NCBI GenBank assembly: GCA_021777565.1 | Contig: JAJYDJ010000003.1 | Span: forward strand, 65,001-129,000 | Origin: a bacterium | GTDB lineage: Bacteria > Patescibacteriota > Microgenomatia > Levybacterales > UBA12049 | DNA: 64,000 bases | Reading direction: 5' to 3' | Program-made: the position numbers and the translations under genes | In this document: piece after piece, positions 5,389-57,411 of the stretch | Layout of the letters: each line of letters begins with the position of its first letter | Numbering within the stretch: the stretch's first letter is position 1 | The notes under the pieces: model-generated | Database searches by the model: none | Told to the model about the DNA's origin: nothing | What the model saw: only the letters and a program-made list of their open reading frames with translations

Positions 5389-6148
5389 TGTATACATACA
5401 TAACGTTACCCCAGAACAACAGAAAATACTTTGTTGGCTAGCACTATTTACTATACTCACAAAAAAACATATGCAGAAATTGCTCAGACATAAAGATCAT
5501 AAATGGGTATCTGTCTGCATATCCAGACTACAAGCAGATGGATATGTGAAGGAAGTGCCCTTCACATTTGGAAGAACGAAAATTTTTGCATTATCAACCA
5601 AAGGAATGCTACTAGTAAAACGTATAAACACAACAGATACACAGCACAAGCAAATTGCTAAAAATATCTCATTTGCACAGATTGATCGTTTCTTGTGTAT
5701 TGCAGACGTATATGTACAACTCAATGAAAATAGTAAAGATACACTTTCATTTATCGCTAAGGCAAATCTCTCACGCGAAAGTAAAATAATAACACCGGAT
5801 GCATATCTAACATATACAGAAAGTACTCGAATAAAGACATATTTCCTTGAATTAGATAGAGAAACACAAAGCATGAATCCTATGGAAAAGAAACTTGAAA
5901 GATATTCACAGTACTTTTACTCAAAACAATGGAAAAGAATAACGCCAGACCACTTTCCAGCTGTTTGTATCATATGTTTCACACAAGAAAGAAAAAGGAA
6001 TTTGATGAATTTAGCAGAAGACCTATTTAATACGTCTCACTTCGCTCCTATTGTGTTTAAATTTACTACGCTAGATGAAATAAACAATGGTACACAAAAA
6101 GATATCTGCCTTGTTCCGTTCGAAAAAAAATTATATCCTATCCTATAG
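5363..6148 (+). CDS. hypothetical protein, possibly winged-helix / replication-relaxation-like
   Basis: 261-aa ORF that overlaps the end of the coupling-protein gene, suggesting an operon. The N-terminal region looks like wHTH. It has the size and position of the replication-relaxation family proteins of Gram-positive conjugative elements, but the family assignment is tentative. Confidence 0.4.
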   Translation: MEVLMKRSNVYIHNVTPEQQKILCWLALFTILTKKHMQKLLRHKDHKWVSVCISRLQADGYVKEVPFTFGRTKIFALSTKGMLLVKRINTTDTQHKQIAKNISFAQIDRFLCIADVYVQLNENSKDTLSFIAKANLSRESKIITPDAYLTYTESTRIKTYFLELDRETQSMNPMEKKLERYSQYFYSKQWKRITPDHFPAVCIICFTQERKRNLMNLAEDLFNTSHFAPIVFKFTTLDEINNGTQKDICLVPFEKKLYPIL

Positions 6149-6249
6149 GTAAATATACATCTGGATGTTAGATGTGCCAGTTTTGTTTTAATAATATTTA
6201 ACTATAATCTCAGTATAAAGTGGCGATAAGAATATATGTAGGTCAAAAA

Positions 6250-6278
6250 CTGACAACAATACACTTTTAGTGTATAAT
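6250..6278 (+). promoter_or_regulatory. sigma70-like promoter for the cargo operon (CTGACA-17 nt-TATAAT)
   Basis: The -35 element CTGACA is at 6250-6255. A 17-nt spacer contains the palindrome ACACTTTTAGTGT. The -10 element TATAAT is at 6273-6278. A second TATAAT lies near 6320. Confidence 0.45.
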
Positions 6279-6364
6279 ACCTTTTCAAGAACAAAGATCT
6301 ACCTAGAAACTCAGCTGGGAGTATAATTGAGATGACAATTTAGATATACGTTCTTAATAAATAT

Positions 6365-6988
6365 ATGTATACAATTACAGGCACGGCAGGCAATAACTGG
6401 CTTGAATATTGCAAATTAGTACTAGAGTACGGGTCAGACTTTCATGATGAGGGAGAGAAGATCAAAGAACTCCTTGATGTATTCATTCTTTTTGATAATT
6501 TCGATCCTAATGACTCTATTTTCGTTAAATACGGCAATCCTCATACAATTGACTTGTATAAACAGAAAATGATCTCATTGGAGATCATTCCTGAGCTCAA
6601 TACTACCTATGGCAAAAGATTATATGCACAGCAAGGCTTTGATCAGATTAAGTGGCTTACTGATAGGCTAAAAAGGAAACCAGAGACAAAATCAGCAACA
6701 ATCTCTCTTTTACTTCCTGATGACCCTGGACCACGTATTCCATGTTTAACGACTATTGACTGTAAAGTGCGTGGTGGAAAACTGCACATGACCGTATTCT
6801 TCAGATCCCAAAATGTAGCACGCTCCTATGCAAACTTCATTAGCGTTCACTACTTACACGAGAAGATTGCAATTGATTCTGGACATCCACTAGGGCAAAT
6901 GAAGTTTATTGTCTCTTCAGCCCATATTTATGAAAGGGACATAGAACCTGTAAAGAAGATCTTGGAAGAGACCAGTGAGTTAAGATAA
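6365..6988 (+). CDS. thymidylate synthase-fold protein (ThyA / dNMP hydroxymethylase family), minimal 207-aa version
   Basis: IPCLTTIDCKVRGGKLHMTVFFRSQNVARSYANFISVHYLHEKIA aligns to the ThyA active-site block [40 protein letters not shown]. The nucleophilic Cys is present. GQMKFIVSSAHIYERD aligns to GDFVWTGGDTHLYSNH. Confidence 0.65.
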   Translation: MYTITGTAGNNWLEYCKLVLEYGSDFHDEGEKIKELLDVFILFDNFDPNDSIFVKYGNPHTIDLYKQKMISLEIIPELNTTYGKRLYAQQGFDQIKWLTDRLKRKPETKSATISLLLPDDPGPRIPCLTTIDCKVRGGKLHMTVFFRSQNVARSYANFISVHYLHEKIAIDSGHPLGQMKFIVSSAHIYERDIEPVKKILEETSELR

Positions 6989-7003
6989 TACCAGATACTT
7001 ATA

Positions 7004-7591
7004 TCATACATCTGCATTTTTATATCTATCATCAGCTTTCATTTCTTTACGAATTAATCCTCGTATAAGTTCCGTCTTACTTTTTTTGTGAATGAAGGCA
7101 GACCACTCAATGTATCTATCTTCTTGAGAGCTCAGAACTAAATTAAATCTTGTCTTTTTACCAGTTTTATTTTCTTCTAAGAACTTTTCAATAATTTCAG
7201 GTAACTCATTTGTGTTTGTGTACACTTCATCATTTAAAAGCTCTGATATAACTCCATTCGTTGTAAGTGAAAACATATCCCTATTTGTAGATTGATGCAA
7301 ATGGAGAACTGGTTTGCCTTTCTGAAGTGCAATTGTCATCTGATGTCCTGCAGTAAGACCCTTTACCGTTCCTTCAACAATAGCTACATCAGCGTTAATA
7401 ATAGAGGTAATAATATCTGCGTAGAGTTTATCGAAATCAACTTTATTCTTAGTTTCTTGGTTTTGTAGGGCCTCATCAATCCAATCTCTAGTCAACTCAT
7501 GTCCGAGACTCACGATTATTTCACAAATTTGTTTATAAATAGGGAAGTATTCAGGAAGTTTTGATGTTGAGGTGATAAAAACAACTTTCAT
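7004..7591 (-). CDS. nucleoside 2-deoxyribosyltransferase / DNPH1(Rcl)-like protein
   Basis: ADVAIVEGTVKGLTAGHQMTIALQKGKPVLHLHQ parallels the DNPH1 segment ADVVVAEVTQPSLGVGYELGRAVALGKPILCLFR. A small Rossmann-like fold begins at MKVVFITS. Confidence 0.5.
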   Translation of the reverse strand: MKVVFITSTSKLPEYFPIYKQICEIIVSLGHELTRDWIDEALQNQETKNKVDFDKLYADIITSIINADVAIVEGTVKGLTAGHQMTIALQKGKPVLHLHQSTNRDMFSLTTNGVISELLNDEVYTNTNELPEIIEKFLEENKTGKKTRFNLVLSSQEDRYIEWSAFIHKKSKTELIRGLIRKEMKADDRYKNADV

Positions 7592-7632
7592 ATATAAGAG
7601 CTATACTTAACTTCATTTATTTATGTAAAGTA

Positions 7633-7657
7633 TAACATCATTATACATGATGTTATG
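7633..7657. promoter_or_regulatory. perfect palindrome (10-bp arms, 5-bp spacer) in the divergent promoter region; candidate operator
   Basis: ATAACATCAT-TATAC-ATGATGTTAT read directly. It lies in the AT-rich 330-bp intergenic region between the divergent genes 7004-7591 (-) and 7922-8962 (+). Confidence 0.3.
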
Positions 7658-7921
7658 TAATCCTTGTACCCCCATTACAAAGATACTGTTTAGATTTTGA
7701 ATTTCCTCTTGACACAGAATGAAATATGTTATACACATGAATATGTACATATATACACACTTGTGCATTGATGTACTAGTGAATGATGCGTGCATTATTA
7801 GTTTGCCAAAAGTGTAGAAGAGAATATAAAGTTTCATCTAAGGATGAGTCTAAGTTTTCAGTATCACTACTAAAAGTGAGCGATGAGCTTTTAGTACATT
7901 CTGAGGTTTGTCCAAGGTTAT

Positions 7922-8962
7922 ATGGAAAAAGGAAAACTAAATCGAAATAAAAATATGAATAAAATACTAAAAGTAGGCATTATAGGCATGGGTGAGCAGA
8001 TGACTGACAACCTGCTTCCTAGCATATTACTCAATAACTCTGTCATCATAGATAGTGTATGTGATATTGATAAAGAGAAATTGCATATAGCAGAATCAAA
8101 ATATAACGTAGTTGGATGCCAGTCTTATCAAGAAATGCTTACTACTAGAGAACTCGATTGTATTGTAGTGGCATCAACACCCCAAGTTCACGAAGCTGTT
8201 ATACAGTTATCAATTGACAAAGGTATCCCTATCTTTGTCGAGAAACCTCCATTCGTTGATATATCTAGCCTAACTCATATCATGAGTGACCCTAAAGCAA
8301 AAGATTTAATAAGTGGGGTTGGCATTAATTTTAGTTACACTGACAGTTTATTAATTCTCAAGGAATTACTGAATGAAAAAAAGTTTGGCAATATTTTGTA
8401 TTGGAATATTAATCATCTTGCTAATAAACCAACGGAGGCGCTGTGGGGGCTAAATAGCGTACCTCAATCATTTTTGCTCGCGCAAGCGATTCACCCTTTG
8501 GCATTTATATTAAGCTTTGGTGATAATTATAAAATCAAAAGTATTGATTATAGCCAGTTTGCTGATCAACTTCTGTTAAATTTAAATTTAGATATAAATC
8601 GTAATGGAAAGTCCTTTGTTGCAAATATTACATCAGGAACTTGTTCCCCGCACTTTGAGTGGAATATGGAGATTATTACTGACCAAGGGAAAATATTACG
8701 AATCAATTCACTGTGGGAATTGGAGTTGCTAGATGCTGGGAAAAAAACAGATCTCGTTAAAAATACTAAAAGATGGAAAGACGTATGGCATCCAAGTCCT
8801 GTTGGAAATGGTCTAAAAAGGACAGGTTATTATCATGAGCTTTCATCTTTTTTTGATAGCGTAAGGGAAAATAAGACATTTTATCCTAACCTTTCTAATA
8901 TGTTTGCGGTATATACACTCATTGATCAAATAAGTAAAAACATAACTGTAAAATATGTATAA
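7922..8962 (+). CDS. Gfo/Idh/MocA-family NAD(P)-dependent sugar oxidoreductase
   Basis: The N-terminal Rossmann motif is KVGIIGMGE. The EKP motif is present (FVEKPP). An alternative start lies at M12 (MNKILKVG). Confidence 0.7.
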   Translation: MEKGKLNRNKNMNKILKVGIIGMGEQMTDNLLPSILLNNSVIIDSVCDIDKEKLHIAESKYNVVGCQSYQEMLTTRELDCIVVASTPQVHEAVIQLSIDKGIPIFVEKPPFVDISSLTHIMSDPKAKDLISGVGINFSYTDSLLILKELLNEKKFGNILYWNINHLANKPTEALWGLNSVPQSFLLAQAIHPLAFILSFGDNYKIKSIDYSQFADQLLLNLNLDINRNGKSFVANITSGTCSPHFEWNMEIITDQGKILRINSLWELELLDAGKKTDLVKNTKRWKDVWHPSPVGNGLKRTGYYHELSSFFDSVRENKTFYPNLSNMFAVYTLIDQISKNITVKYV

Positions 8963-10091
8963 ACTTGAAAATAAATTCGTAAGTATTAACGCTGAAGATA
9001 TTCAATCTGTGACTGATTCTCTGAGGCAAAAACAGCTTGCTGGGACAGCAGATGTTGTAAAAACCTATGAGCAAAAACTGTCTGAATATTTTGCAGCCAA
9101 ATATGCCCATGCATGCAATTCTGGTACTGCTGGGATTGAGCTTATTCTTAGAGCTCTTGGCGTAGACGAGAACAGTGAAGTTTTATTGCCACCGACGGGT
9201 CCTGTGATGTGTGTATTGCCGATAATAGCAATTGGAGCAAAACCAGTTTTTGTCGATGTAGATTCATCATCTACTTTTGGTATTGATATTGAGGATTTGC
9301 AAAGAAAAATAACAAAAAAAACAAAAGCTCTTCTTGTAGTCCCCATGTGGGGATACCCAATCGAGATGAGTGAAATCAGAAAGATATGCCAAGAAAAACG
9401 AATTATTCTTATTGAAGACGCCTCACACTGTCACGGCAGTAAACTAGGAGAGCACTATGTTGGGACTCTTGCTGATCTTTCTATTTTTAGTACTCAAGAA
9501 AGAAAACTTGTCACGACAGGAGAAGGAGGATTTGTACTTACCAACACGCCTGAGATCAGTCAAGTAGTACAAGAAATGAGGAACTTCGGTAGGGCAACAA
9601 CAAATGTTGCATATTTTGATAGAAAAGTAGATGATTTTGGCGTACGTTTTGGCCTTAATTTTAGGCTTAGTGCAACAAATGCAGCTCTAGGGATATCCCA
9701 GCTAGAGAAATTGGATAATAAGATTAAACAAAGAACTCGAAATGCAGAATACATACGAGAGTCCTTGAATAATTGTAAAGACATTGAAGAAATACCAATT
9801 CTCTCTCATGCAATACCTAATTATTACTCAATAGTTTTTAAGATAAAAAATATGACAAACAACGCTGTGTTTGGGAAATATCTAGACGAGCATGGAATTA
9901 TATCTGACACATATAGATTTAACTATATGCCGCTATATCAAATGCCACTCTTTAGTTCATATGTTTCTTCATGTCCCAATGCAGAATCTGTAACAAAATC
10001 AATCTTTACGTTGCCGACACATGAAGGACTAATCCAGAAAGATTTAGATCATATTATTTCAACTGTAAAAGATTTTTATGCAAATACTTAA
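8955..10091 (+). CDS. DegT/DnrJ/EryC1/StrS-family PLP-dependent sugar aminotransferase
   Basis: Family-typical N-terminus. The Lys-containing segment IEDASHCHGSKLG matches the DAAHA.G.K PLP-binding-Lys region. It overlaps its upstream neighbour by 8 nt. Confidence 0.85.
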   Translation: MYKLENKFVSINAEDIQSVTDSLRQKQLAGTADVVKTYEQKLSEYFAAKYAHACNSGTAGIELILRALGVDENSEVLLPPTGPVMCVLPIIAIGAKPVFVDVDSSSTFGIDIEDLQRKITKKTKALLVVPMWGYPIEMSEIRKICQEKRIILIEDASHCHGSKLGEHYVGTLADLSIFSTQERKLVTTGEGGFVLTNTPEISQVVQEMRNFGRATTNVAYFDRKVDDFGVRFGLNFRLSATNAALGISQLEKLDNKIKQRTRNAEYIRESLNNCKDIEEIPILSHAIPNYYSIVFKIKNMTNNAVFGKYLDEHGIISDTYRFNYMPLYQMPLFSSYVSSCPNAESVTKSIFTLPTHEGLIQKDLDHIISTVKDFYANT

Positions 10092-10581
10092 TAACTTGTT
10101 ATTGCCTGAGAAGTTCTGCAAACATGAGAGGCATATTACTGTTTCAGGCTACATCTTTAACAAAAGTCTAACAAAGGTAGTTTTACTTCATCACAAGAAA
10201 CTACACAAATGGATGGCTGCTGGTGGACATATTGAGGTAAATGAGTTACCGCATGAGGCTATTTCACGAGAGATTAAAGAAGAGGTAGGAGTTGAAGCGG
10301 ATTTTATTGATTCTATGATTGCTGCTAAGTTCGATTCTGTAAATGAGTGGAAGATGCCTTCGCCATATTTTGCCATGATGCAAGTAATCCCTGAAACAAA
10401 AACAAATCCCGAGCATTTACATTACGACTATAGCTATATACTCGTTGCACGCACAAAGAAATTGAATCCTAAACCAGATGAGTCACAAAAAGTTCAATGG
10501 TTCTCTTTACCTGAAGTGCTAAAACTGGAAACATTCCCTATTGTGCCAAAAATTTGTAAAGCGATACTTTCAAAAAAATAA
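10078..10581 (+). CDS. NUDIX hydrolase
   Basis: The Nudix box GGHIEVNELPHEAISREIKEEVGVEA matches GX5EX7REUXEEXGU. Confidence 0.8.
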   Translation: MQILNNLLLPEKFCKHERHITVSGYIFNKSLTKVVLLHHKKLHKWMAAGGHIEVNELPHEAISREIKEEVGVEADFIDSMIAAKFDSVNEWKMPSPYFAMMQVIPETKTNPEHLHYDYSYILVARTKKLNPKPDESQKVQWFSLPEVLKLETFPIVPKICKAILSKK

Positions 10582-10582
10582 T

Positions 10583-12187
10583 ATGAATAACTTACCTCTT
10601 AATTATTCTGATATGTATATAGGGATTGTCTTGACTGCGACTTCAATAGTTTTGGCTCGAGGCATTATGAATCTCTATAAGATAATTGATAATATCTCCT
10701 GGCTTAAAAAGACACATTATTCATCTGACGATTATAAAATCGTAAAGGATTTTCCACCAATCATTATCTGCATACCCATGTTACGGGAACAAAGGACAGC
10801 AAAATCAACAATCGAGTATTTCTCTAGTCTAGAGTATGCTAAAAAAGATTATCAACTTGTTATTGTAACCACTGAGAAAGAGCGGTATGACAAGGATGTT
10901 TACAAAAAAAGATTACCTCAGATATATGCAGACTTAAAACAGGGCATTTCTTTAGCAAGCTTTGTAGATAGGTATCTTGGCGTATTTTCTGAAGCAGAAC
11001 TCGTACATCTATTCCAAGCAAAAGATAAGGGAATTTCCTTGAAAGAAATAACTGAAAAATTTAATCAAATTCCCAGTACTGAAGATATTGCTCAAGAAGA
11101 AGCTAAAAGAATTAATAAAAAAGTGGGATTCGAGCTAATAAAAGTACTCCACTACCCCAAGAATCATAGAACTGTTAGTGAACAGATTAATTATGCGATT
11201 GATTATTATAGAGACATAAAAAGATACGAGAGGGGATATTTTGCATTATATAATGCCGATTCACGTCCAAGTTTAACAATTTTATATGATGCGCTTGTTA
11301 CAAAGGCTAACTTTGAAAGGAAATATAACTATTCTCCTCAAGTCATGCAACAATCTTCACTGTTTACATTAAACTATGGTATGTTTAAGAACAATCTCAA
11401 TGGATTCTTGTTGAAAGCATCAGCATTATTCCAAACAAAATGGACGCTTACCCATGAGTTTTCTATCCTCCGAAGCCAATCAGATACAGCAATGAAAATA
11501 AAGAAGGTAACAAATCCACTTGCGAAAATTTGGTATTCACGTCTAGGTATTTGCATTACGCATGGATTGTTCTTGAGTATGAAACTTATTAAAACACAAT
11601 ATATGCCTACCGACACAGTAACTGAAGACCTGCCATTGGGTTACTATTTATCCTGTCTTAATGAACCAATCGTACCAATACCATCAATTGAGAATTCAGA
11701 ATCCCCAGTTACATTAGGAAGTCTCTTTAATCAAAAAAAAGTTTGGTTCTGGCCATACTTACAATATGAGCAATGCAAAAGGAGAGTATTGAAACACTCT
11801 CTCTATCAATCAACGATATCAGTATATCTCATTACCTTTCAAGGCCAATTAAGAGGATTAACATGGCTACTACAGTCACCAATACTAATACTTTCTTTTT
11901 TGGGTCTTGTCATGTTTAATCACTGGCAAGTAATAGAATTCTCTCTCCTTGCGATAATAATATATTGGTTCATACCTATTTATATTGTTTTGAAACAACT
12001 CAACAGTCTAGAAAATGAGTCAGGCAAAGGTCTCACCACACTGAGTTCTAGAGATTATATCTATACACCCCTCTCTGGGCTTCTCGTTCTTGCTTCCCAC
12101 TCCTATGGCCCTATACTTACTTGCATTGATTACCTCAAAGAGATTCTGTTTGGAAAGGTATACGTTAAGCAAAAAACAGAAAGATAA
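10583..12187 (+). CDS. polytopic membrane protein with GT-A (family-2-like) glycosyltransferase domain
   Basis: It has an N-terminal TM segment. PPIIICIPMLREQ...YQLVIVT resembles the GT2 N-terminal beta-strand/DXD region. The C-terminal third has multiple TM helices. The start is moved to ATG 10583, just after the NUDIX stop. Confidence 0.45.
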   Translation: MNNLPLNYSDMYIGIVLTATSIVLARGIMNLYKIIDNISWLKKTHYSSDDYKIVKDFPPIIICIPMLREQRTAKSTIEYFSSLEYAKKDYQLVIVTTEKERYDKDVYKKRLPQIYADLKQGISLASFVDRYLGVFSEAELVHLFQAKDKGISLKEITEKFNQIPSTEDIAQEEAKRINKKVGFELIKVLHYPKNHRTVSEQINYAIDYYRDIKRYERGYFALYNADSRPSLTILYDALVTKANFERKYNYSPQVMQQSSLFTLNYGMFKNNLNGFLLKASALFQTKWTLTHEFSILRSQSDTAMKIKKVTNPLAKIWYSRLGICITHGLFLSMKLIKTQYMPTDTVTEDLPLGYYLSCLNEPIVPIPSIENSESPVTLGSLFNQKKVWFWPYLQYEQCKRRVLKHSLYQSTISVYLITFQGQLRGLTWLLQSPILILSFLGLVMFNHWQVIEFSLLAIIIYWFIPIYIVLKQLNSLENESGKGLTTLSSRDYIYTPLSGLLVLASHSYGPILTCIDYLKEILFGKVYVKQKTER

Positions 12188-12192
12188 AACAT

Positions 12193-12897
12193 ATGGCTGA
12201 AATACATATCGCAACTATTGATGGGACTAGCTTTGCAGGGAAAACAACTCTACTTGAGGGCATCTCTCATGCAAATTCAAACATACAAAGGATTGAGGAA
12301 TACGATGCGTATGCTGGCGGCTTTATAAATTTCCCTGATTTTCCCCCAACAGATGAACAAGCAGCAAGAGATGGGATAGATTGTATTGTTCGATTAGACC
12401 AAATGCGTACTCCTGATATCAGAAGGAAAAGCGCAGATGGAGCCATTGTTGTTACTGATCGTTCTGTTCTCTCGTGCATTCTTTTTCAAGACACTGTCAG
12501 AAGGTTGATGCCACATATCCCAAATGCATACCAATACTGCTTAGAAGCATTTTTAAGGGCCCATGATGCAGGAGAAGTTATTTTCCCAAACTCACTCATA
12601 TATTTGGAGGCTGTCAATGTTGAAACATTTAATAAACGTGTTGGCAGAAGAGGACGTACTCCGATAGACTTTCTATCAAGCGAGGAGGCTTATTACTTTA
12701 CTAGAGAATGGTTTTCAAAACTCATTTCTCAGCATTATGCTACAGATAATAGTATCTTATTACAATCTGAAGATGGTAGACTAGATGAACTGGTTGCAAA
12801 TGCAATGGCATTTCTCCAAAACTCTAGTTACCAAGGAGATACTCGTCTCATGTTGGAGACATTGCTTGCGAATTGCAACAGATTGGAGCTAAGTTAA
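12193..12897 (+). CDS. P-loop nucleoside/nucleotide kinase (deoxynucleoside kinase / dNMP kinase-like)
   Basis: Walker A is IDGTSFAGKTT (compare dNK IEGNIGSGKTT). The DRS motif is present (VVTDRSVLS). Confidence 0.6.
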   Translation: MAEIHIATIDGTSFAGKTTLLEGISHANSNIQRIEEYDAYAGGFINFPDFPPTDEQAARDGIDCIVRLDQMRTPDIRRKSADGAIVVTDRSVLSCILFQDTVRRLMPHIPNAYQYCLEAFLRAHDAGEVIFPNSLIYLEAVNVETFNKRVGRRGRTPIDFLSSEEAYYFTREWFSKLISQHYATDNSILLQSEDGRLDELVANAMAFLQNSSYQGDTRLMLETLLANCNRLELS

Positions 12898-13529
12898 TGA
12901 TTACACCAAAAATCATCTTTATTGACTGGAATAAAACACTCTCATACTCATTGTTTTGGGAGCAATTGCAGACAGAAGAACATAGATATCATCCTTATGG
13001 TGATCAGATCATCCATTCGCTTTTCAATATTGACTTGAATCTTATAAACGACTGGATGCTTGGAAAGCATACAACAGAAGATGTATGTAATTTTATATCT
13101 GAACATGTAAAACTTCCAGCAAATATAATTCAACAGGAGCTTATTGTAAGTTGTCAGCATATGAAGTTTATTGACAAAGTGATACCTAGATTACTCACAA
13201 AAATACGCAAGAAAGGGATACGAGTAGTGATTGCGACAGACAATATGGATACGTTCCGTCGATTTACTATGCCAGCTCTAAAGTTAGAAGAACATTTTGA
13301 CGATTTTCTCATATCTTCCGAGTTAGGTGTGTTCAAATACACGTTTACTGATGATAAAATACCATTCTTTGATACCTATCTACAAGCCTATAACGCAACA
13401 TATCAAGATGTAGCTCTACTCGATGACAGTCCTGAGCAAACAGGAACATACGAAAAGAAAGGATTTGTTATTCGAGATGTACAGGATAAGAGTGATCTTA
13501 TAAGGTATTTAAAAGAATATGCTGCTTAA
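12897..13529 (+). CDS. HAD-superfamily hydrolase (phosphatase/nucleotidase-like)
   Basis: Motif I-like IIFIDWNKTL. Later conserved acidic motifs are VVIATDN and ALLDDSPEQ. The start ATG 12897 overlaps the upstream stop (TAATG). Confidence 0.5.
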   Translation: MITPKIIFIDWNKTLSYSLFWEQLQTEEHRYHPYGDQIIHSLFNIDLNLINDWMLGKHTTEDVCNFISEHVKLPANIIQQELIVSCQHMKFIDKVIPRLLTKIRKKGIRVVIATDNMDTFRRFTMPALKLEEHFDDFLISSELGVFKYTFTDDKIPFFDTYLQAYNATYQDVALLDDSPEQTGTYEKKGFVIRDVQDKSDLIRYLKEYAA

Positions 13530-14226
13530 TTTGATTTTCCACCATATTTCAACAACGCCATTATCTGATGATCATTGGGCTATTACACCAGAAAAATATT
13601 GGTCAGTTATTGATATGATAAATCAATTAATAAAAACCCAAAAAGTTCCATATGAAGATTATCGAATATATTTTGACGATGGATACAGTTCGTTCTATGA
13701 TTTTATTTACAAAGATATTCCTGAGAAAGAATTATCTCGATATACATTGGCTATTGTGACTGACGATGTAGATACTCCAAACCATATGACTCTCCAGCAG
13801 TTAAAAGAGATTCATGAGACAGGTATACACATGTCCTCTCATGGAGTTTCACATGCTTCTATAGCTATCTATATTGATAATGTTATACAAACTACTCCCC
13901 TGGGGGGCATCTATCAAAACTGTCCTTGGGGGCAAGGAAAAGCATTAAGCGAGAGAGAGGTTTTATATCAACTCCAGGAATCCAAAAAATTCCTTGAAAA
14001 ATATTTTGGAATAATTGATGAATTTGTATTTCCCTTTGGGATTTATAACAATCAGGTAATCGCACTGAATGATAAATACGGTTTATATAGATACATGTCC
14101 ACATGTGATGAAGTTCTTGACCATGGACAGTTTCTAAGACCACGATACCTAATATATAACACAAAAAGTATGGAGCAAATTAAAGACGAATTAATGAACA
14201 TTAAAAATCAATATGAACTACTGTAA
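13519..14226 (+). CDS. polysaccharide deacetylase (CE4/NodB domain)
   Basis: The FDDGY metal-binding motif is present, together with MTLQQLKEIHETGIHMSSHGVSH (HxxH-type motif). Confidence 0.7.
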   Translation: MLLNLIFHHISTTPLSDDHWAITPEKYWSVIDMINQLIKTQKVPYEDYRIYFDDGYSSFYDFIYKDIPEKELSRYTLAIVTDDVDTPNHMTLQQLKEIHETGIHMSSHGVSHASIAIYIDNVIQTTPLGGIYQNCPWGQGKALSEREVLYQLQESKKFLEKYFGIIDEFVFPFGIYNNQVIALNDKYGLYRYMSTCDEVLDHGQFLRPRYLIYNTKSMEQIKDELMNIKNQYELL

Positions 14227-14244
14227 TAAGATTAAATAACTTGT

Positions 14245-14907
14245 ATGGATGAATACTTAATGAAACTCAAGACTAAGGTAGATGTAATGTTTGCCAATGA
14301 AAAAAGTGGGCATGATATTGCACACTTAGAGAGAGTCATGAGACTAGCATTACACATTCAAAAAGAAGAAGGTGGGGATAGACTTATTATCGGCATTTCT
14401 GCATATTTACATGATATACATAGACTTCTTGAAAATAGAGAGCATAAATTTTTCTCTCCAAAAATGTCACTACCAATAGTAAAAGATCTATTAAAATCCG
14501 TAGACTTCCCTGACAGAGAGATCAGTAAAGTTCTCCATTGTATTGAGTTTCACGAGGAGTATGATTTCACCCCACAAGGAAAAACAGTATCAGATCTAGA
14601 GACCCTCATCTTGCAGGATGCAGATAATCTCGATGCAATGGGGGCAATTGGTATTGCAAGAGCATTTATGTACGCAGGACATCATGGTGCGGTTATGTGG
14701 AATCCAGAAGTACCTCTAAATCCTGAAGCTTTATTTGAAGATGCTAAATCATTAGATGACGCATCCACTATACATCATTTCTATCATAATATACTCAAAC
14801 TGTGTGACAACATGAACACCTCGACAGCCAAATCTATTGCAAAAGATAGGCAGGAATTTACGCAAGAGTACATAGAAAGATTTTTTACTGAGTGGGATTT
14901 CATTTAA
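14245..14907 (+). CDS. HD-domain phosphohydrolase (YfbR-like 5'-deoxynucleotidase family candidate)
   Basis: HDIAHLERV...LHDIHR...LQDADNLD gives the H...HD...D metal-ligand pattern of HD hydrolases. Confidence 0.7.
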   Translation: MDEYLMKLKTKVDVMFANEKSGHDIAHLERVMRLALHIQKEEGGDRLIIGISAYLHDIHRLLENREHKFFSPKMSLPIVKDLLKSVDFPDREISKVLHCIEFHEEYDFTPQGKTVSDLETLILQDADNLDAMGAIGIARAFMYAGHHGAVMWNPEVPLNPEALFEDAKSLDDASTIHHFYHNILKLCDNMNTSTAKSIAKDRQEFTQEYIERFFTEWDFI

Positions 14908-14974
14908 TTCCACATTTTGAGACATAGTCCAGGTATAAGTAATTTACTTACCTGTAAGAAATAAATCTAAACGG

Positions 14975-15982
14975 ATGAATAAGCTTTATCATAAAAACAC
15001 ACTTGGTTATCATGTTTTATCTCACGATAATAATTATCCACTTAATATACTAAAACTATCAAATCCAACAGGCCTTACATCTCTATCAATCGTTATACTT
15101 TACTTTGAAGCAGTACAGACAATTAACTTAGTTCTTGAACATTTACTAAAATCCGTTAATAAAATAAAAAAACAAGTTGATAAAACTTGGGATGTTGAAG
15201 TCATCTTGATTGACGATGGATCTACAACTTATACTGCCAAGGAAACAATACACCCAGACTATTTATCTCAAATTAAAGTAGTGAGACACGCTGTAAATAG
15301 GGGTCGATGTATAGCAAGAAATACAGGTATCAGATCGGCAAGAAAAGAGTTACTACTCTTCTTAGATGCAGATATACTGGTAAATGAAACAATTTTATTG
15401 AATCATATGAGGATACATAACGATATTCGGAAGTATGATGATAATGCTATATCCGTTTCGCTATTCAATTTTGTACAAAAAGATATACTTGATAGAACAA
15501 AAGACCTCTCAGTACTTTTTAAAAAAACCAACGACTTTAGAGATGATTGCACATACCAAGAAAAGTGGATAGGATGTGAGGAAGATAAGGAGTTTGCCAA
15601 TCAAAGATTTAGGATTATGAAAGATACACATTATTTACAGAAATGGCCTTTATCAGGCTCTGTTGGACCTTGGATAATGACAAATATGGTTTTGGGGGGA
15701 GCGTTTATGGTAGATCGAAAACTAGCACAACTTGTAAATGGCTGTGATTATCTTTTTGTTGAATATGGATTTGAGGAAACTTCTCTTGCAACGAAACTAA
15801 TTGTTTATTGTGGTTCTTATATAATCCCTGAAACTTCGGCATACCCTATTCACATAATATGTGAGCAAGGAGAGAAAAACAGGCCTGAGAAAAACACTCT
15901 ATTTAGAAAAGCCCATGACCTATATTTTAATAAGTTTTTAAAGAGGAAAATCAATGAAAATGTAATCTTTGATACAGATTGA
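14975..15982 (+). CDS. family 2 glycosyltransferase (GT-A)
   Basis: VILIDDGSTT...RHAVNRGRCIARNTGIRSA...LLFLDADI gives the typical GT2 DXD and catalytic region. Confidence 0.7.
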   Translation: MNKLYHKNTLGYHVLSHDNNYPLNILKLSNPTGLTSLSIVILYFEAVQTINLVLEHLLKSVNKIKKQVDKTWDVEVILIDDGSTTYTAKETIHPDYLSQIKVVRHAVNRGRCIARNTGIRSARKELLLFLDADILVNETILLNHMRIHNDIRKYDDNAISVSLFNFVQKDILDRTKDLSVLFKKTNDFRDDCTYQEKWIGCEEDKEFANQRFRIMKDTHYLQKWPLSGSVGPWIMTNMVLGGAFMVDRKLAQLVNGCDYLFVEYGFEETSLATKLIVYCGSYIIPETSAYPIHIICEQGEKNRPEKNTLFRKAHDLYFNKFLKRKINENVIFDTD

Positions 15983-32189: not shown

Positions 32190-33179
32190 ATGTTAAATCC
32201 GAAATTACATCTCAATCCTAAACTGTTTGATACAGACGTTGAGCAAAAAGCGACACGCGATGGGTATGGAGAGGCTTTAGTGGCCCTCGGCGAGGCTGAC
32301 AAACGGGTAGTGGCACTTACTGCAGATCTTGCTGAATCAACCAGAACTGAAGCATTCGCGACAAAATTCCCAGAGAGATTTTTTGAGTGTGGCGTGGCAG
32401 AGCAGAATATGGCTGCGATTGCGGCAGGACTTGCAGTCACAGGCAAAATACCATTTATTTCCTCCTACGCTACCTTCTCTCCTGGCAAAAATTTAGAGAC
32501 TATCCGAACAACTATCATCTATAACAATGCCAACGTGAAGATCGCCGGGCATCACAGTGGCATCATGACAGGGCCCGATGGGGCTACCCATCAAGCCACG
32601 GAAGATATTGCCATCATGAGAGCGCTCCCTGATGTGCAGGTAGTTGTCCCGTGTGATGCAATTGAGGCAAAGAAAGCAACTATGGCTGCAGGCACGTACG
32701 TAGGGCCTGTGTATCTACGTTTTACTCGTGACAAGACACCGCTGATAACCACCGAAGATACGCCATTTGATGGGACTGTGCAACAATTTTGGGTTACTGA
32801 TCATCCGGTTGTGACAATTTTTGCCACAGGATACATGCTTATGTATGCACTTCTTGCAGCTAAAGAACTCGAAGGAGAAGGAATCTCTGTCATCGTTGCC
32901 AATGTAGCCAGTATTAAACCTCTGGATGAAGCCACAGTTCTCTCACTTGTACAAGAGTCAGGGGCAGCAGTCACTGTGGAAGACCATCAAGTTATGGGAG
33001 GCTTAGGAGGACTGATCGCAGAAGTATGTGCGAAAAATCATCCTGTCCCAATGGAATTTATTGGACTGCAAAATACGTTTGGTGAGTCAGGGAAACCTGC
33101 AGAGCTTATCGAAAAATATGGCATGGGCAAAGAAAGTATTAAACAAGCGGTAAAAAAAGTGATTGAAAGAAAAAAATAA
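32190..33179 (+). CDS. transketolase, C-terminal subunit
   Basis: It contains the pyrimidine-binding domain and the C-terminal domain. It immediately follows the N-terminal subunit gene. Confidence 0.9.
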   Translation: MLNPKLHLNPKLFDTDVEQKATRDGYGEALVALGEADKRVVALTADLAESTRTEAFATKFPERFFECGVAEQNMAAIAAGLAVTGKIPFISSYATFSPGKNLETIRTTIIYNNANVKIAGHHSGIMTGPDGATHQATEDIAIMRALPDVQVVVPCDAIEAKKATMAAGTYVGPVYLRFTRDKTPLITTEDTPFDGTVQQFWVTDHPVVTIFATGYMLMYALLAAKELEGEGISVIVANVASIKPLDEATVLSLVQESGAAVTVEDHQVMGGLGGLIAEVCAKNHPVPMEFIGLQNTFGESGKPAELIEKYGMGKESIKQAVKKVIERKK

Positions 33180-33180
33180 T

Positions 33181-34833
33181 ATGGATACCCAACTTATAGA
33201 AAAACTCAAAGCAATCATCTCAGGAGAAGTCATGAGTGATAACGAGACACTGCAAACATATTCTCATGACGCATCGCTTTTCGAGGTCATGCCACAAGTG
33301 GTTGTGGCTCCAAAAGACGCCAAAGATGTACAAGCGCTCGTGAGTTTTGTTACTGAACAAAAGAAAAAGTATCCCAGTCTTTCACTCACTGGCAGATCAG
33401 CCGGCACCGATATGGGAGGAGGATCTATCAATGATGGCATTATCGTTTCATTTACCCAGCATTTCAATCACACCCCAACTGTAAAAGGTACTGTCGCCAC
33501 AACTGAGCCAGGTGTTTTTTACCGTGACTTTGAGAAAGAGACCCTCAAACATAATTTAATTTTCCCCTCCTACCCTGCTAGTCGAGAAATTTGTGCAATG
33601 GGTGGCATTGTGAATAACAACTCAGGTGGAGAGAAGTCTCTGCAGTACGGAAAAACGGAAAAGTATGTCAAGCGAGTGAAAGTTGTCCTCTCTGACGGAA
33701 AGATTTATGAATTTAAACCACTCACAGAGACTGAACTGAAGAAGAAAATGACGCAGAAAGATTTTGAAGGTAAATTATATAAAGAATTATATGCTCTTAT
33801 TTCAGAGAATTATGACCTTCTGCAAAAAGCAAAACCTAAAGTTACCAAAAACTCAGCAGGATACTATTTGTGGAATGTTTGGGACAAAGATAAGAAAATT
33901 TTCGACCTGACAAAATTATGGGTTGGTGCACAGGGCACGCTGGGGATGCTTCTTGAAGCTGATATTGAACTTGTCCCCGTGCATAAACATCACGAAATGG
34001 AAGTCATATTTCTGCATGACATGAGCCATCTCAAGCAGATTGTGGATACCATCCTGCCTCTGCAACCAGAAAGTTTCGAGAGTTATGATGACAATACCTT
34101 AAAACTGGCCTTGCGATACTTTCCGGAGTTTATCCATCAACTAGGCATCGGTGGGATGATAGAGGCAGGATTTGCCTTCATGCCAGCATTTATGGATATG
34201 CTTCTGGGACGACTTCCCAAGCTTATCTTACAGGTGGATTTTGCCGGGGATGATCCAGACGAACTGAAGCAAAAGATTGCAACACTTCGTGAGAAATTAA
34301 GACCGCTACACCCACAGACAACTATTGCGGTTGATGAACAGGAGAAAAAATATTGGCTCGTACGCCGTGAGAGCTTTAATTTATTGAGAAAGAAAGTACG
34401 CAATCTTCATACCGCACCATTTATCGATGATATTGTGGTTGATTGGCATGATTTTGCAACAGTATTTACCGAAGTAAGTAACATTCTGAAAAAACACAAA
34501 GAGTTTATCTTTGCCGGACAGGGTCATGTGGGAGATGGAAATTTTCACATTATTCCACTCGTAGATATCGCCAACCCAAAAGTCAGGCAGTTAATTCCAG
34601 AAATTTCCAAACAAGTATATAGCCTGGTCATCGCTCACCATGGGTCCATCACCGGTGAGCATAATGATGGGCTTATCCGTACACCATATCTAGAGGAGAT
34701 GTATGGCAAAGATATTGTCGAGCTTTTTAGAAAAACAAAAGAGATTTTTGATCCAGAAGATATCTTTAATCCCCGAAAGAAAATTGGTGGGACAATAGAA
34801 TATGCGATGAGCCATATCCGTGAGAATTGGTGA
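33181..34833 (+). CDS. FAD-linked oxidase (GlcD / D-lactate dehydrogenase-like)
   Basis: The FAD-binding PCMH domain LTGRSAGTDMGGGS is present, with the typical C-terminal domain. The start is set at M7 (33181), just after the upstream stop. Confidence 0.8.
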   Translation: MDTQLIEKLKAIISGEVMSDNETLQTYSHDASLFEVMPQVVVAPKDAKDVQALVSFVTEQKKKYPSLSLTGRSAGTDMGGGSINDGIIVSFTQHFNHTPTVKGTVATTEPGVFYRDFEKETLKHNLIFPSYPASREICAMGGIVNNNSGGEKSLQYGKTEKYVKRVKVVLSDGKIYEFKPLTETELKKKMTQKDFEGKLYKELYALISENYDLLQKAKPKVTKNSAGYYLWNVWDKDKKIFDLTKLWVGAQGTLGMLLEADIELVPVHKHHEMEVIFLHDMSHLKQIVDTILPLQPESFESYDDNTLKLALRYFPEFIHQLGIGGMIEAGFAFMPAFMDMLLGRLPKLILQVDFAGDDPDELKQKIATLREKLRPLHPQTTIAVDEQEKKYWLVRRESFNLLRKKVRNLHTAPFIDDIVVDWHDFATVFTEVSNILKKHKEFIFAGQGHVGDGNFHIIPLVDIANPKVRQLIPEISKQVYSLVIAHHGSITGEHNDGLIRTPYLEEMYGKDIVELFRKTKEIFDPEDIFNPRKKIGGTIEYAMSHIRENW

Positions 34834-55668: not shown

Positions 55669-57411
55669 ATGCAGTCACCAACCCTTCTCAAAAATCTCAA
55701 TGATTTGAAGATAACGCCAAATCTTACTGAGTACGTATCTCAAAGCCAACCGCAATGGGACAGTCTCGCGAAAGACATCCCATCCTTCTCTGAGGGGATA
55801 AAACATATTACCTATCACTGTCTAGACTTTCACCTGATGCAAAGCACGAAGGATAAGGAGGCACTGCTTTTCTGGAATAAAGAAGATATGAAGGAAAGCT
55901 ATACGTATGCCGATCTCGCAACACTCTCAAACAAATTTGCACACGTGCTATCCACGCAAGAAGTAGTGAAAGGCGATAGAGTATGTATTTTTCTTCCAAC
56001 GATTCCAGAGCGTCTCGTGACCTTCCTTGGGACACTCAGAACAGGTGCTATCGTACTCCCACTTTTTGCCGCGTTTCAAGAGATGGCACTTCTTGACAGG
56101 CTGAAAGATAGTGAAGCGAAAGTCGTTGTCACAACACATGAGTTATATCCTCGCATCCACAAAATCATGCACAATCTCCCACATCTCAAGAAAATTATTA
56201 TTATCCAGAGAGGCTCTTTTGAGATGCCAACTGGGGATCAGATTGTATCCTACAACGAATATATGGCAGAGGCGCCAGATGTCTATATCTCTCCCGAGAT
56301 TTTACCCACTGATCCGGCATTTATGCTCTATACGTCCGGGACCACTGGCAAGCCAAAAGGTATTATACACACACACAAAGATGTGATCGGGGCAGCGGTG
56401 ACAAGTAAGTATGTTCTTGACCTGCATGAGGATGATATCTACTGGTGCACTGCGGACCTTGGATGGGTCACAGGAGTTGTGTACGGAGTTATTGGGCCCC
56501 TCACACTGGGTGTGACGACTGTGGGCTACGAAGGGAGATTCTCTGCAACCAATTGGTATAGTGTCCTGGAGAAAAGTAATGTCAGTGTCTGGTATACCGC
56601 ACCAACTGCTATTCGCATGCTTATGGGGTCAGAGACCACTCCAAGCGACTATCACTTCCCTGCACTACGTCTTCTGGCAAGTGTTGGTGAGCCACTTAAT
56701 CCTGAAGGCATTTGGTGGGGGCTTGAGAAGTTTGGCCTCCCTTTTCACGATACATGGTGGCAAACAGAGTTAGGGTGTATCTGTATCACCAATTTCGCCT
56801 CTATGGACATCAAACCAGGCTCCATGGGCAAACCTTTCCCAGGCATCAAAGCAGCCATTCTCGATGATGACGGAGAAGTACTTCCCACAGGACAGGAGGG
56901 CATGCTTGCTCTGGATAAGACAACTATTCAGCCACTTATGGATGCTATTTGGAAAAATTCTGAGAAGTACCAGTCTTACTTCCATAACAATTGGTATCTG
57001 TCCGGGGACAGAGCCTATCAAGATGAAGACGGATATTTCTGGTTTGTGGGACGAGCGGACGATATTATTAACACGAGCGGAGAACGCGTTGGGCCTTTTG
57101 AAGTTGAGAGCGCGCTGGTTGCACATCCTGATGTCGTAGAAGCAGGTGTTATCGGATATCCTGATGAACTGCGTGGAGAGATTGTGATGGCATGTGTTGT
57201 TCTTAAGCCAAATATCACCCCATCAGATGAGTTGATAAAAGACATTGAAATATTTGTGAAGCAACATCTTTCAGGGTATGCATACCCAAGAAAAATAGTA
57301 TTTGTTGATAAACTTCCAAAAACACGCAGTGGCAAAATCATGAGACGAGTACTCAAGGCTCGTGTACTAGGACTTCCTGAGGGAGATACTTCTACGCTTG
57401 AGGAGTATTAA
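55669..57411 (+). CDS. acetyl-CoA synthetase-like AMP-forming acyl-CoA ligase
   Basis: The AMP-binding motif is YTSGTTGKPKG. The Acs-typical motif DTWWQTE is present. The C-terminal PKTRSGKIMRR is present. Confidence 0.85.
   Translation: MQSPTLLKNLNDLKITPNLTEYVSQSQPQWDSLAKDIPSFSEGIKHITYHCLDFHLMQSTKDKEALLFWNKEDMKESYTYADLATLSNKFAHVLSTQEVVKGDRVCIFLPTIPERLVTFLGTLRTGAIVLPLFAAFQEMALLDRLKDSEAKVVVTTHELYPRIHKIMHNLPHLKKIIIIQRGSFEMPTGDQIVSYNEYMAEAPDVYISPEILPTDPAFMLYTSGTTGKPKGIIHTHKDVIGAAVTSKYVLDLHEDDIYWCTADLGWVTGVVYGVIGPLTLGVTTVGYEGRFSATNWYSVLEKSNVSVWYTAPTAIRMLMGSETTPSDYHFPALRLLASVGEPLNPEGIWWGLEKFGLPFHDTWWQTELGCICITNFASMDIKPGSMGKPFPGIKAAILDDDGEVLPTGQEGMLALDKTTIQPLMDAIWKNSEKYQSYFHNNWYLSGDRAYQDEDGYFWFVGRADDIINTSGERVGPFEVESALVAHPDVVEAGVIGYPDELRGEIVMACVVLKPNITPSDELIKDIEIFVKQHLSGYAYPRKIVFVDKLPKTRSGKIMRRVLKARVLGLPEGDTSTLEEY

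Follow-up and report, generated by a model that had tools for sequence, protein, structure and literature searches.

The window analysed here is a stretch of 64,000 nucleotides (positions 65,001–129,000 of contig JAJYDJ010000003.1, assembly GCA_021777565.1) from a bacterium of the Levybacterales (Patescibacteriota), and it contains a mobile island with a gene of 207 amino acids (aa) that is related to thymidylate synthase (TS), here called the TS-like gene (Table 1). Around this gene the GC content is 0.34–0.37, compared with 0.40–0.46 in the host part of the window. The low-GC island adjoins a tRNA-Glu gene and encodes a serine recombinase, a VirD4-like coupling protein and transfer genes of the TrbC/TrbL/VirB4 type. 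A Replic_Relax relaxase lies directly upstream of the TS-like gene, which forms a pair with a 195-aa gene (p195), and the pair is located between the relaxase and the genes of the type IV secretion system (T4SS). The mobile-element setting proposed in an earlier note, which was made from the sequence without database searches, is thereby confirmed. The island also encodes a restriction-modification system, consisting of a Dcm methyltransferase with restriction-like genes. We found no att repeat of the tRNA 3' end of at least 11 nt in the island and no riboswitch or other RNA element near the TS-like gene at Rfam gathering thresholds. The TS-like protein belongs to a coherent TS-superfamily clade that is still uncharacterised, and the active-site signature of this clade predicts a new activity.

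The TS homology of the 207-aa protein is far beyond chance. Pfam PF00303 (Thymidylat_synt) matches residues 77–203 only (E 4.7e-13), and the short methanogen-type TS family of NCBIfam, TIGR03283, matches the protein full length (9–194 against 9–199 of 201, E 2.6e-24). An AlphaFold model based on 117 homologs has a pLDDT of 95.5 and a pTM of 0.92, and Foldseek against the PDB assigns it the TS fold, with E 5e-14 to both MilA and ThyA. The top match is the CMP hydroxymethylase MilA (TM 0.85, root mean square deviation 2.7 Å), and ThyA structures follow at TM 0.69–0.76. On a profile level the family is equidistant from ThyA, MilA, T4 Td and the PDB entry 9iqu (E 1e-11 to 1e-12). The N-terminus lines up with the N-termini of the homologs, and the protein is 57 residues shorter than Escherichia coli ThyA (the earlier note had estimated about 55 for bacterial ThyA) because of an internal deletion (approximately ThyA residues 40–80) and the loss of about 45 C-terminal residues. 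The gene is a genuine feature, out of the ordinary, and not a product of misannotation.

Three independent alignments agree on the active-site block that the earlier note had matched to ThyA by eye. In the numbering of E. coli ThyA (reference sequence identical to PDB 1aob), P-C127 corresponds to P-C146 (I-P-C127-L against A-P-C146-H), F-R147-S148-Q to Q-R166-S167-C, A-N157-F to F-N177-I and S-A-H187-I-Y189 to D-T-H207-L-Y209. As in canonical ThyA (EC 2.1.1.45), the protein keeps the fold, the Pro-Cys nucleophile Cys146, Arg166-Ser167, Asn177, Tyr94 (Y82), His207 and Tyr209, so that the description as a minimal TS-fold protein with a nucleophile and a uracil-type Asn is correct. Unlike in ThyA, Arg21 is replaced by Glu29, Arg126/Arg127 by Lys109/Ser110, His147 by Leu128, Gln165 by Phe146 and Cys168 by Gln149. 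The folate-contacting Asp169 is Asn150, which together with Asn157 is invariant across 117 homologs, the Glu58/Trp80/Trp83 folate segment is deleted, and the C-terminal lid is absent, given that the protein stops about 45 residues before the C-terminus of ThyA. The equivalent of L143 is Arg124 by position, at a place where the alignments differ by a two-residue gap. In the phosphate clamp (Arg21, Arg126', Arg127' and Arg166) only Arg166 is kept. According to the earlier note, intact folate-binding and hydride-transfer residues, together with the absence of a second thy gene from the genome, would have made this simply the TS of the organism. Instead, Asp169, the Glu58–Trp83 segment, the lid, Arg21 and His147 are gone, and the protein is without the folate-binding apparatus of ThyA. 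In Lactobacillus casei TS, replacing the equivalent Asp221 abolishes dTMP synthesis.

The residues that remain are strongly conserved. Of 151 aligned sequences, 144 have the nucleophilic Cys (most of the seven exceptions are fragments with a gap in that column), and Tyr94, Arg166, His207 and Tyr209 are conserved almost as well, which is the pattern of an active enzyme. A catalytically idle uracil-nucleotide-binding protein (a pseudo-enzyme or sensor) is for this reason extremely improbable, despite the loss of Arg21, Arg126/127, His147, Gln165 and Glu58 and the frequent pairing with sensor- or effector-type partners. In addition, the Ham1, NUDIX and methyltransferase fusions in the wider family imply a small-molecule product.

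To place the protein in the superfamily, we combined an exhaustive hidden Markov model search of 1.84 billion representatives, which yielded 89 proteins at E <= 1e-30 and 1736 at E <= 1e-10, with a table of signature residues and a distance (neighbor-joining, NJ) tree. Table and tree resolve three large clades of short TS-like proteins. The methanogen-type clade has Arg-Arg at positions 126/127, Asp169 and Asn177, and many of its members carry MtrA or PterinBD-DUF4346 fusions. The cytosine-type clade has Lys-Ser, Asp169 and Asp177, contains an embedded Asp169/Asn177 subclade, and includes some members fused to Ham1, NUDIX or S-adenosylmethionine (SAM)-methyltransferase. The present clade has Lys-Ser, Asn169 and Asn177, with fusions to an FGE-sulfatase domain, a membrane module with four transmembrane helices (4-TM) or a SAM-methyltransferase. 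It comprises about 30 to 40 representatives at 50% identity and is essentially monophyletic, with rare reversions and a small sister group that keeps Asp169. The clade is distinct from ThyA, methanogen-type TS, MilA-type hydroxymethylases and phage 5-hydroxy-dCMP synthases, and we know of no characterised enzyme that pairs Asn169 with Asn177. Judged by the single family TIGR03283, the size and diversity of the short TS-like assemblage would be greatly underestimated. Proteins P0169, P0174, P0189, P0235, P0223, P0232 and P0217 are examples of fusions in the other short clades, with Ham1/ITPase, NUDIX or SAM-methyltransferase in fused Asp169/Asp177 forms and MtrA-like or PterinBD-DUF4346 parts in fused Arg-Arg/Asp169/Asn177 forms.

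Membership in the methanogen-type TS family was rejected. The protein shares the compact form of about 200 aa, is alignable end to end and keeps Asn177, Cys146 and Arg166. However, it scores 85.8 bits against a TIGR03283 cutoff of 174.55, has Lys-Ser/Asn/Asn where the methanogen enzymes and their MtrA- or PterinBD-fused relatives keep Arg126-Arg127 and Asp169, often with pterin-related fusions, and falls on a separate branch of the NJ tree. The ThyA equivalogs of NCBIfam give only 22–35 bits, and none of their cutoffs (108–427 bits) is reached.

These scores also bear on the simplest explanation, a short housekeeping TS, comparable to the methanogen enzyme, whose gene lies on the island by chance. 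It would account for the full-length similarity to TIGR03283, for orthologs that adjoin nucleotide kinases and NDK, and for the lack of a second TS-type gene or ThyX motif in the window. The last point says little, since the contig that carries the gene is 953 kb long and the window covers only about 7% of it. dTMP synthesis has been reported in the minimal gene set of Patescibacteria (PMC12455944). Against a housekeeping role, half of the TIGR03283 cutoff is reached, the Arg-Arg/Asp169 signature is missing, and the gene is sporadic in its lineage and sits on a mobile low-GC island. Protein clusters with more than 50% identity to the TS-like protein number only about 16; for Lon, 120 of 120 same-lineage relatives among the matches listed are at 69–74% identity, and the named best homologs (69–72% identical) belong to Saccharimonadales, Levybacteria and 'Patescibacteria group'. 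Furthermore, distant members of the clade occur in large genomes, for example on the 3.17-Mb chromosome of Clostridium baratii. The doubt of the earlier note about a housekeeping TS was therefore justified on residues, curated cutoffs, rarity and mobile context. We reject a housekeeping ThyA identity as very unlikely, and give hardly any weight to a short housekeeping form.

A precedent for the active site comes from phages. Lee et al. (Nucleic Acids Res 2026, PMC13326640) reported that the phage TS homologs RB69 gp48, DLP3 gp80 and RL38J1 gp216 make 5-hydroxy-dCMP (5hodCMP), with flavin mononucleotide (FMN) bound and O2 as the oxygen source. Asp169-to-Asn is the sole active-site change common to all 5hodCMP-producing TS homologs, and nine diverse TS homologs picked by Asn169 each produced 5-hydroxy-dC (PMC13326640). 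In the same study, Asn or Asp at position 177 sets uracil or cytosine, respectively, non-methyl products are associated with a polar residue at position 143, and phages pair the TS homolog with a deoxynucleoside monophosphate (dNMP) kinase (PMC13326640). Lee et al. also cite a crystal structure of the homologous enzyme of phage HY126, in which a flavin is present (PMC13326640). Among the best sequence matches of the TS-like protein are the PDB entries 9iqc, 9iqu and 9ir2, which represent the HY126 enzyme and are about 98% identical to RB69 gp48. These entries carry the label 'Thymidylate synthase' only, and annotation transfer from them would mislabel relatives, given their near identity to a 5-hydroxy-dCMP synthase.

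The TS-like protein resembles the phage enzymes in its TS fold and short form (234–259 aa in the phage proteins), in the loss of Arg21 and in keeping Cys146, Tyr94 and His207. With RB69 gp48 and RL38J1 gp216 it shares the exact R-S-Q-N motif with Asn169 and the SAH(I/V)(Y/F)(E/D)RD motif, with the chain ending right after that helix. RL38J1 gp216 is the phage match with the highest query coverage (93%, 27% identity). The differences are also clear. The phage synthases have the cytosine-type Asp177, whereas Asn157 of the TS-like protein, and of its whole family, is the uracil-type Asn177. Arg126/127 are replaced by Lys-Ser, the L143 equivalent is, by position, Arg instead of Glu, the His147 position is Leu instead of Thr, the protein is about 30 residues shorter in the Glu58 region, and identity is only 27–30%. 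Moreover, the genes of the present clade are cellular and mobile-element genes and not phage genes. Using two short motif patterns of the close TS-like subfamily, we found no viral relatives among 2.9 million IMG/VR contigs, and a phage origin of the gene was discarded on that basis.

Taken together, the TS-like protein is probably a C5-modifying enzyme that belongs to a distinct clade, is not a ThyA and has an accessory role. From its residues, the substrate would be a uracil nucleotide (dUMP or UMP), and the C5 reaction would proceed without methylene-tetrahydrofolate in the manner of ThyA. By analogy with the only characterised Asn169 enzymes, 5-hydroxy-(d)UMP would be the most likely product. 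A literature search found no papers on 5-hydroxy-dUMP synthases.

The earlier note had suggested a dUMP hydroxymethylase or another pyrimidine C5-transferase. The closest form of this idea is a folate- or pterin-dependent one-carbon transferase on dUMP (a hydroxymethylase or an unusual methylase) that binds a methylene-pterin in a remodelled pocket. The kept nucleophile, Tyr94, Arg166/Ser167 and Asn177 are consistent with it, as is a polar L143 equivalent (Arg here, Asn/Ser/His in relatives), which in the phage enzymes is linked to non-methyl products. It would also fit that the closest curated family is the pterin-type short TS TIGR03283, that the best structural match is a hydroxymethylase, that the sister group and rare clade members retain Asp169, and that strict-anaerobe hosts suit an O2-independent reaction better. 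However, in 117 members Asn invariably replaces the pterin-contacting Asp169, the protein has neither the Glu58/Trp80/Trp83 segment nor the C-terminal lid, and the pterin-linked relatives (MtrA and PterinBD-DUF4346 fusions) form a different clade and all keep Asp169 and Arg126/127. Of the dUMP hydroxymethylase signature, Asn177 is present and Asp169 is not. The Asp177 and Asp169 of the dCMP/CMP hydroxymethylases (T4 gp42 and MilA) are both Asn here, and MilA, which aligns as R-A-N-D ... D, is with 318–342 aa much longer. We therefore do not favour a folate-dependent dUMP hydroxymethylase, which is less likely than a folate-independent reaction, and regard a one-carbon transferase in general as unlikely. 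The C5-modifying half of the earlier suggestion holds up better than the transferase half, given that the closest Asn169 precedent is a hydroxylase and not a one-carbon transferase.

The earlier note also called the neighbour of the TS-like gene DNPH1-like, and both fold and profile agree. The N-terminal 140 aa of p195 have the fold of DNPH1/Rcl, a 2'-deoxynucleoside 5'-phosphate N-hydrolase (Foldseek E 3e-7, TM 0.83–0.86), and the profile matches Rcl with E 3.5e-5. The equivalent of rat Asp69 is kept as Asp59, whereas the phosphate-binding Ser and Arg positions differ and a basic tail of 50 aa is added. The catalytic Glu of DNPH1 (rat E93) is Gln84 and the catalytic Tyr (rat Y13) is Phe5, and both replacements are invariant in 10 of 10 members. 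This suggests that the domain is a binding domain and not a hydrolase, and p195 is unlikely to release a base because it is without the catalytic Glu/Tyr and has the extra C-terminal tail. Most likely, judged on these substitutions, p195 is a ligand-binding regulator rather than an enzyme. Its tail (approximately aa 147–190) is basic and has an invariant RFNLVL followed by two predicted helices. This secondary structure, an extended stretch and two helices, fits a ribbon–helix–helix, and the tail looks like a putative DNA-binding region of that type.

With 10 clusters among 5.8 billion proteins, the p195 family is small. It travels with the close TS-like subfamily in four other loci, L004 (49% identity), L015 (57%), L019 (54%) and L020 (52%), in which gene order and orientation of the pair vary. 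A pair of a TS-fold enzyme gene and a DNPH1/NDT-fold gene is also known from mildiomycin biosynthesis, in which the CMP hydroxymethylase MilA works with the hydroxymethyl-CMP N-glycosidase MilB. MilB is among the structural matches of p195, although p195 differs in having lost the catalytic Glu/Tyr and in its extra tail. On another mobile element, L025, the neighbours of a TS-like gene with 36% identity are a membrane-protein gene and a gene for a DNPH1/NDT-like protein in which the catalytic Y-E-L-G motif is intact. Hence, the pairing recurs in an active and an inactive form, recalling MilA/MilB.

The promoter region of the TS-like gene contains a palindrome of ATACAC/GTGTAT half-sites, and a second one lies upstream of p195 (Table 1). 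The pattern ATACAC-N(0-12)-GTGYAT gives three strand matches at just two sites in 64 kb, against 0.10 expected, and none of 100 shuffles reaches three. Palindromes of the same half-sites directly precede the start codon of the TS-like gene in L015 and L019, and in L020 they are found upstream of p195. In the promoter regions of five loci we counted 13 operator hexamers against 0.75 expected, although the motif was chosen post hoc and the P value is optimistic. The conserved palindromes speak clearly for a DNA-binding regulator dedicated to the TS-like/p195 module, with p195 as the only candidate. From the layout of the palindrome in the promoter, repression is predicted. The TAACATCAttatacaTGATGTTA palindrome was not seen in the other loci.

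Table 1 Features of the window and coordinates of related loci and proteins.
Locus or protein	Coordinates	Strand	Feature	Remarks
Window	6250..6278	+	Promoter-like site CTGACA-17-TATAAT	Best sigma-70-like match in 6100-8000, 11/12 positions; consensus match only
Window	6259..6275		Palindrome ATACACTtttAGTGTAT	Candidate operator in the promoter spacer; overlaps the -10 element of the TS-like gene
Window	6365..6988	+	TS-like gene	207 aa, ATG start; Asn169/Asn177 clade; Cys127, R147-S148-Q149-N150, N157, H187, Y189
Window	7004..7591	-	p195	195 aa, convergent to the TS-like gene; DNPH1/Rcl-fold domain and basic C-terminal tail
Window	7633..7655		Palindrome TAACATCAttatacaTGATGTTA	Perfect, 8-bp arms; overlaps the predicted p195 promoter; distinct from the ATACAC/GTGTAT element
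Window	7753..7768		Second operator-like palindrome ATACACACTTGTGCAT	Upstream of p195, between p195 and the divergent GFO/DegT operon
Window	7922-15982		Tightly packed operon	GFO/IDH/MocA oxidoreductase, DegT aminotransferase, NUDIX, 548-aa membrane glycosyltransferase-like protein, P-loop kinase-like protein, HAD phosphatase, polysaccharide deacetylase, HD protein, GT2 glycosyltransferase
Window	12193-12897		Kinase-like gene	
Window	33163-34833		FAD-linked oxidase	
Window	55669-57411		AMP-forming acyl-CoA synthetase	
Window	58544-60382		612-aa open reading frame (ORF)	CoA-ligase domain and C-terminal part of citrate synthase (ATP-citrate-lyase-like)
L004	10632-11231		197-199-aa gene after TS-like	Regulator + TS-like + 199-aa gene, among ordinary chromosomal nucleotide-metabolism genes
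L015	10623-11216		197-199-aa gene after TS-like	As L004
L019	10630-11226		197-199-aa gene after TS-like	As L004
L020	1137-1715		197-199-aa gene after TS-like	As L004
L014	6848-10622		AIRS (PurM-like) + TS-like + mCpol/Cas10-palm protein	Beside DarT-Macro, SLFN-NACHT, Cas1/Cas2
L028	5925-9548		AIRS (PurM-like) + TS-like + mCpol/Cas10-palm protein	As L014
L029, L030			AIRS + TS-like + DprA/SLOG-like + PRTase (PRTase-DUF6273)	
L009	8001-10069		TS-like, then FGE-sulfatase-domain protein (478-498 aa)	Clostridia
L011	8001-10135		TS-like, then FGE-sulfatase-domain protein (478-498 aa)	Clostridia
L017, L023			TS-like, then FGE-sulfatase-domain protein (478-498 aa)	Clostridia
P0163			TS-like/FGE-sulfatase fusion	789 aa
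L024	2777-4151		Membrane module (~200 aa, four predicted helices), upstream or as N-terminal fusion	Serine recombinases
L025	1061-3717		Membrane module, as L024	Serine recombinases
P0154, P0161, P0164			Membrane module, as L024	
P0200			C-terminal SAM-methyltransferase fusion	

Our preferred reading, held tentatively, is that of an accessory, mobile, repressor-controlled TS-fold enzyme that would carry out a folate-free C5 modification of a uracil nucleotide, most likely a flavin-assisted hydroxylation. In the proposed mechanism, Cys127 would add to C6 of the uracil nucleotide and turn C5 into a nucleophile, a step supported by the conserved residues, with the nucleotide held by Arg147/Ser148 and read by Asn157. 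The electrophile would not be a folate iminium but most likely a flavin hydroperoxide, leading to the 5-hydroxy product after Tyr82 abstracts the C5 proton and the cysteine is eliminated. Kinases would then take the product to the di- and triphosphate, as the operons in L015 and L019 and the phage precedent suggest. p195 would sense the nucleotide and gate transcription at the promoter-embedded ATACAC/GTGTAT palindrome, repressing until a nucleotide ligand, plausibly the substrate or the product, fills the DNPH1-like pocket. The system would serve a conflict or cargo function of the island by providing a non-canonical uracil nucleotide, and not the bulk synthesis of dTMP.

Several observations weigh against this proposal. 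The chemistry is predicted from one diagnostic residue, and Asp and Asn at position 169 toggle within one system type (P0154 compared with P0161/P0164). Validated phage hydroxylases score 76–78 bits against the profile of the methanogen-type clade and 52–65 bits against that of the present clade, so that common descent with the 5hodCMP synthases is unsupported; because the hydroxylases score best against the methanogen-type clade, Asn169 was acquired in parallel. Many members of the present clade occur in strict anaerobes (Clostridium baratii, Acetatifactor, Lachnospiraceae and Oscillospiraceae), in which an O2-dependent hydroxylase would be odd. Given that three of the four phosphate-binding arginines are replaced, the monophosphate nature of the substrate is itself a prediction. 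The ribbon–helix–helix assignment of the p195 tail is negative or insignificant in three comparisons: its profile has no Pfam or PDB match, and hhalign against Arc aligns the FNL strand only, at E 0.16.

A pattern search of reference genomes gave only 4 loci and a metagenome scan 7, and the wider genomic company of the clade falls into several arrangements (Table 1). Downstream, L015 has genes for a P-loop kinase and NDK, and the ORFs at that place in L019 match by size and order. The TS-like/kinase/NDK neighbourhood in these two loci parallels the phage pairs of TS homolog and dNMP kinase. The 197–199-aa third gene of these loci is absent from the window and has no Pfam or PDB match, but by eye shows motifs like those of CYTH/triphosphate-tunnel proteins (ELEIRGKF ... 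CWEIEATK). Other arrangements are of a different kind. The conserved AIRS–TS-like operons, which in L014 and L028 stand in defence islands, look like undescribed nucleotide-centric conflict systems. The hosts of the TS-like/FGE-sulfatase arrangement are all strict anaerobes, and in the Acetatifactor loci (L011–L013) the pair adjoins Pkinase-STAND-TPR genes. The L025 element carries a serine recombinase and a VirD4-like fragment. Variable partners around a constant enzyme, together with the company that it keeps, are typical of conflict systems. None of the arrangements matches a known defence system in any PADLOC 2023 model, and a literature search found no papers on TS-like proteins with mCpol or FGE-sulfatase.

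This raises the alternative that the pair itself is a conflict module for defence, addiction or anti-defence, in which a uracil-nucleotide analogue made by the TS-like enzyme would serve as toxin or signal, and p195 would be a sequestering, autoregulating, antidote-like partner, much as in a toxin–antitoxin pair. This alternative is about the biological role, and either chemistry would fit. It draws on the repeated occurrence of clade members in conflict-type loci (mCpol, DprA/SLOG, FGE-sulfatase and 4-TM contexts), on the position of the pair between relaxase and T4SS genes on an island with a restriction-modification system, and on the L025 partner, which keeps the catalytic Glu of DNPH1, an enzyme annotated in the PDB as 5-hydroxymethyl-dUMP N-hydrolase. 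On the other hand, the lack of a PADLOC match speaks against it, the closest orthologs (57–66% identity) stand beside guanylate kinase, P-loop kinase and NDK without recognisable effectors, and the p195 family has only 10 members. We consider it a minority possibility for the island pair.

The tightly packed operon next to p195 resembles, superficially, the phage clusters that glycosylate 5-hydroxycytosine, which combine a TS homolog, a kinase, nucleoside diphosphate (NDP)-sugar synthesis, an HAD phosphatase and glycosyltransferases (PMC13326640). It may serve nucleotide or DNA glycosylation by this analogy, but it is equally compatible with the synthesis of a cell-envelope glycan (amino-sugar), and the TS-like/p195 pair occurs elsewhere without it. 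The kinase that the earlier note placed beside the TS-like gene actually lies 5 kb away in position; it has no PDB match and only weak matches to deoxynucleoside kinase (dNK) and dTMP kinase (dTMPK) (E ~4e-3). Elsewhere in the window, the 612-aa ORF with its CoA-ligase and citrate-synthase parts is an unusual gene to find in a Patescibacteria genome of roughly 1 Mb, and an AMP-forming acyl-CoA synthetase and an FAD-linked oxidase are encoded nearby (Table 1).

For a long time, folate-dependent one-carbon transfer was taken to be the only chemistry of the TS superfamily. A flavin-dependent branch that hydroxylates cytosine, recognised by a single Asp-to-Asn change, was described in phages in 2026 (PMC13326640). 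The present clade shows the same change on a uracil-type active site and in cellular genes. A far-reaching interpretation, which we regard as rather doubtful, is that the product of the clade is a toxic, signalling or DNA-marking nucleotide in conflict systems of cells and mobile elements. These systems would include the AIRS–TS-like–mCpol operons, the TS-like–FGE-sulfatase pairs, the membrane-fused forms and the pseudo-DNPH1-repressed module described here. In its extreme version, the amino-sugar/glycosyltransferase/kinase operon of the island may build a glycosylated 5-hydroxyuracil on a conjugative element, like the glycosyl-5-hydroxycytosine of phages.

If the prediction fails, the clade still marks a chemistry yet to be assigned in an intensively studied fold. 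If it is true, a textbook enzyme family would gain a further branch and a new nucleotide product, 5-hydroxy-dUMP or 5-hydroxy-UMP, and this product would be linked to bacterial defence-like systems and mobile elements. The partner of the enzyme would then be a regulator of a new type, based on a disabled DNPH1 fold, and a natural example of this fold being recruited as the ligand sensor of a transcription factor.

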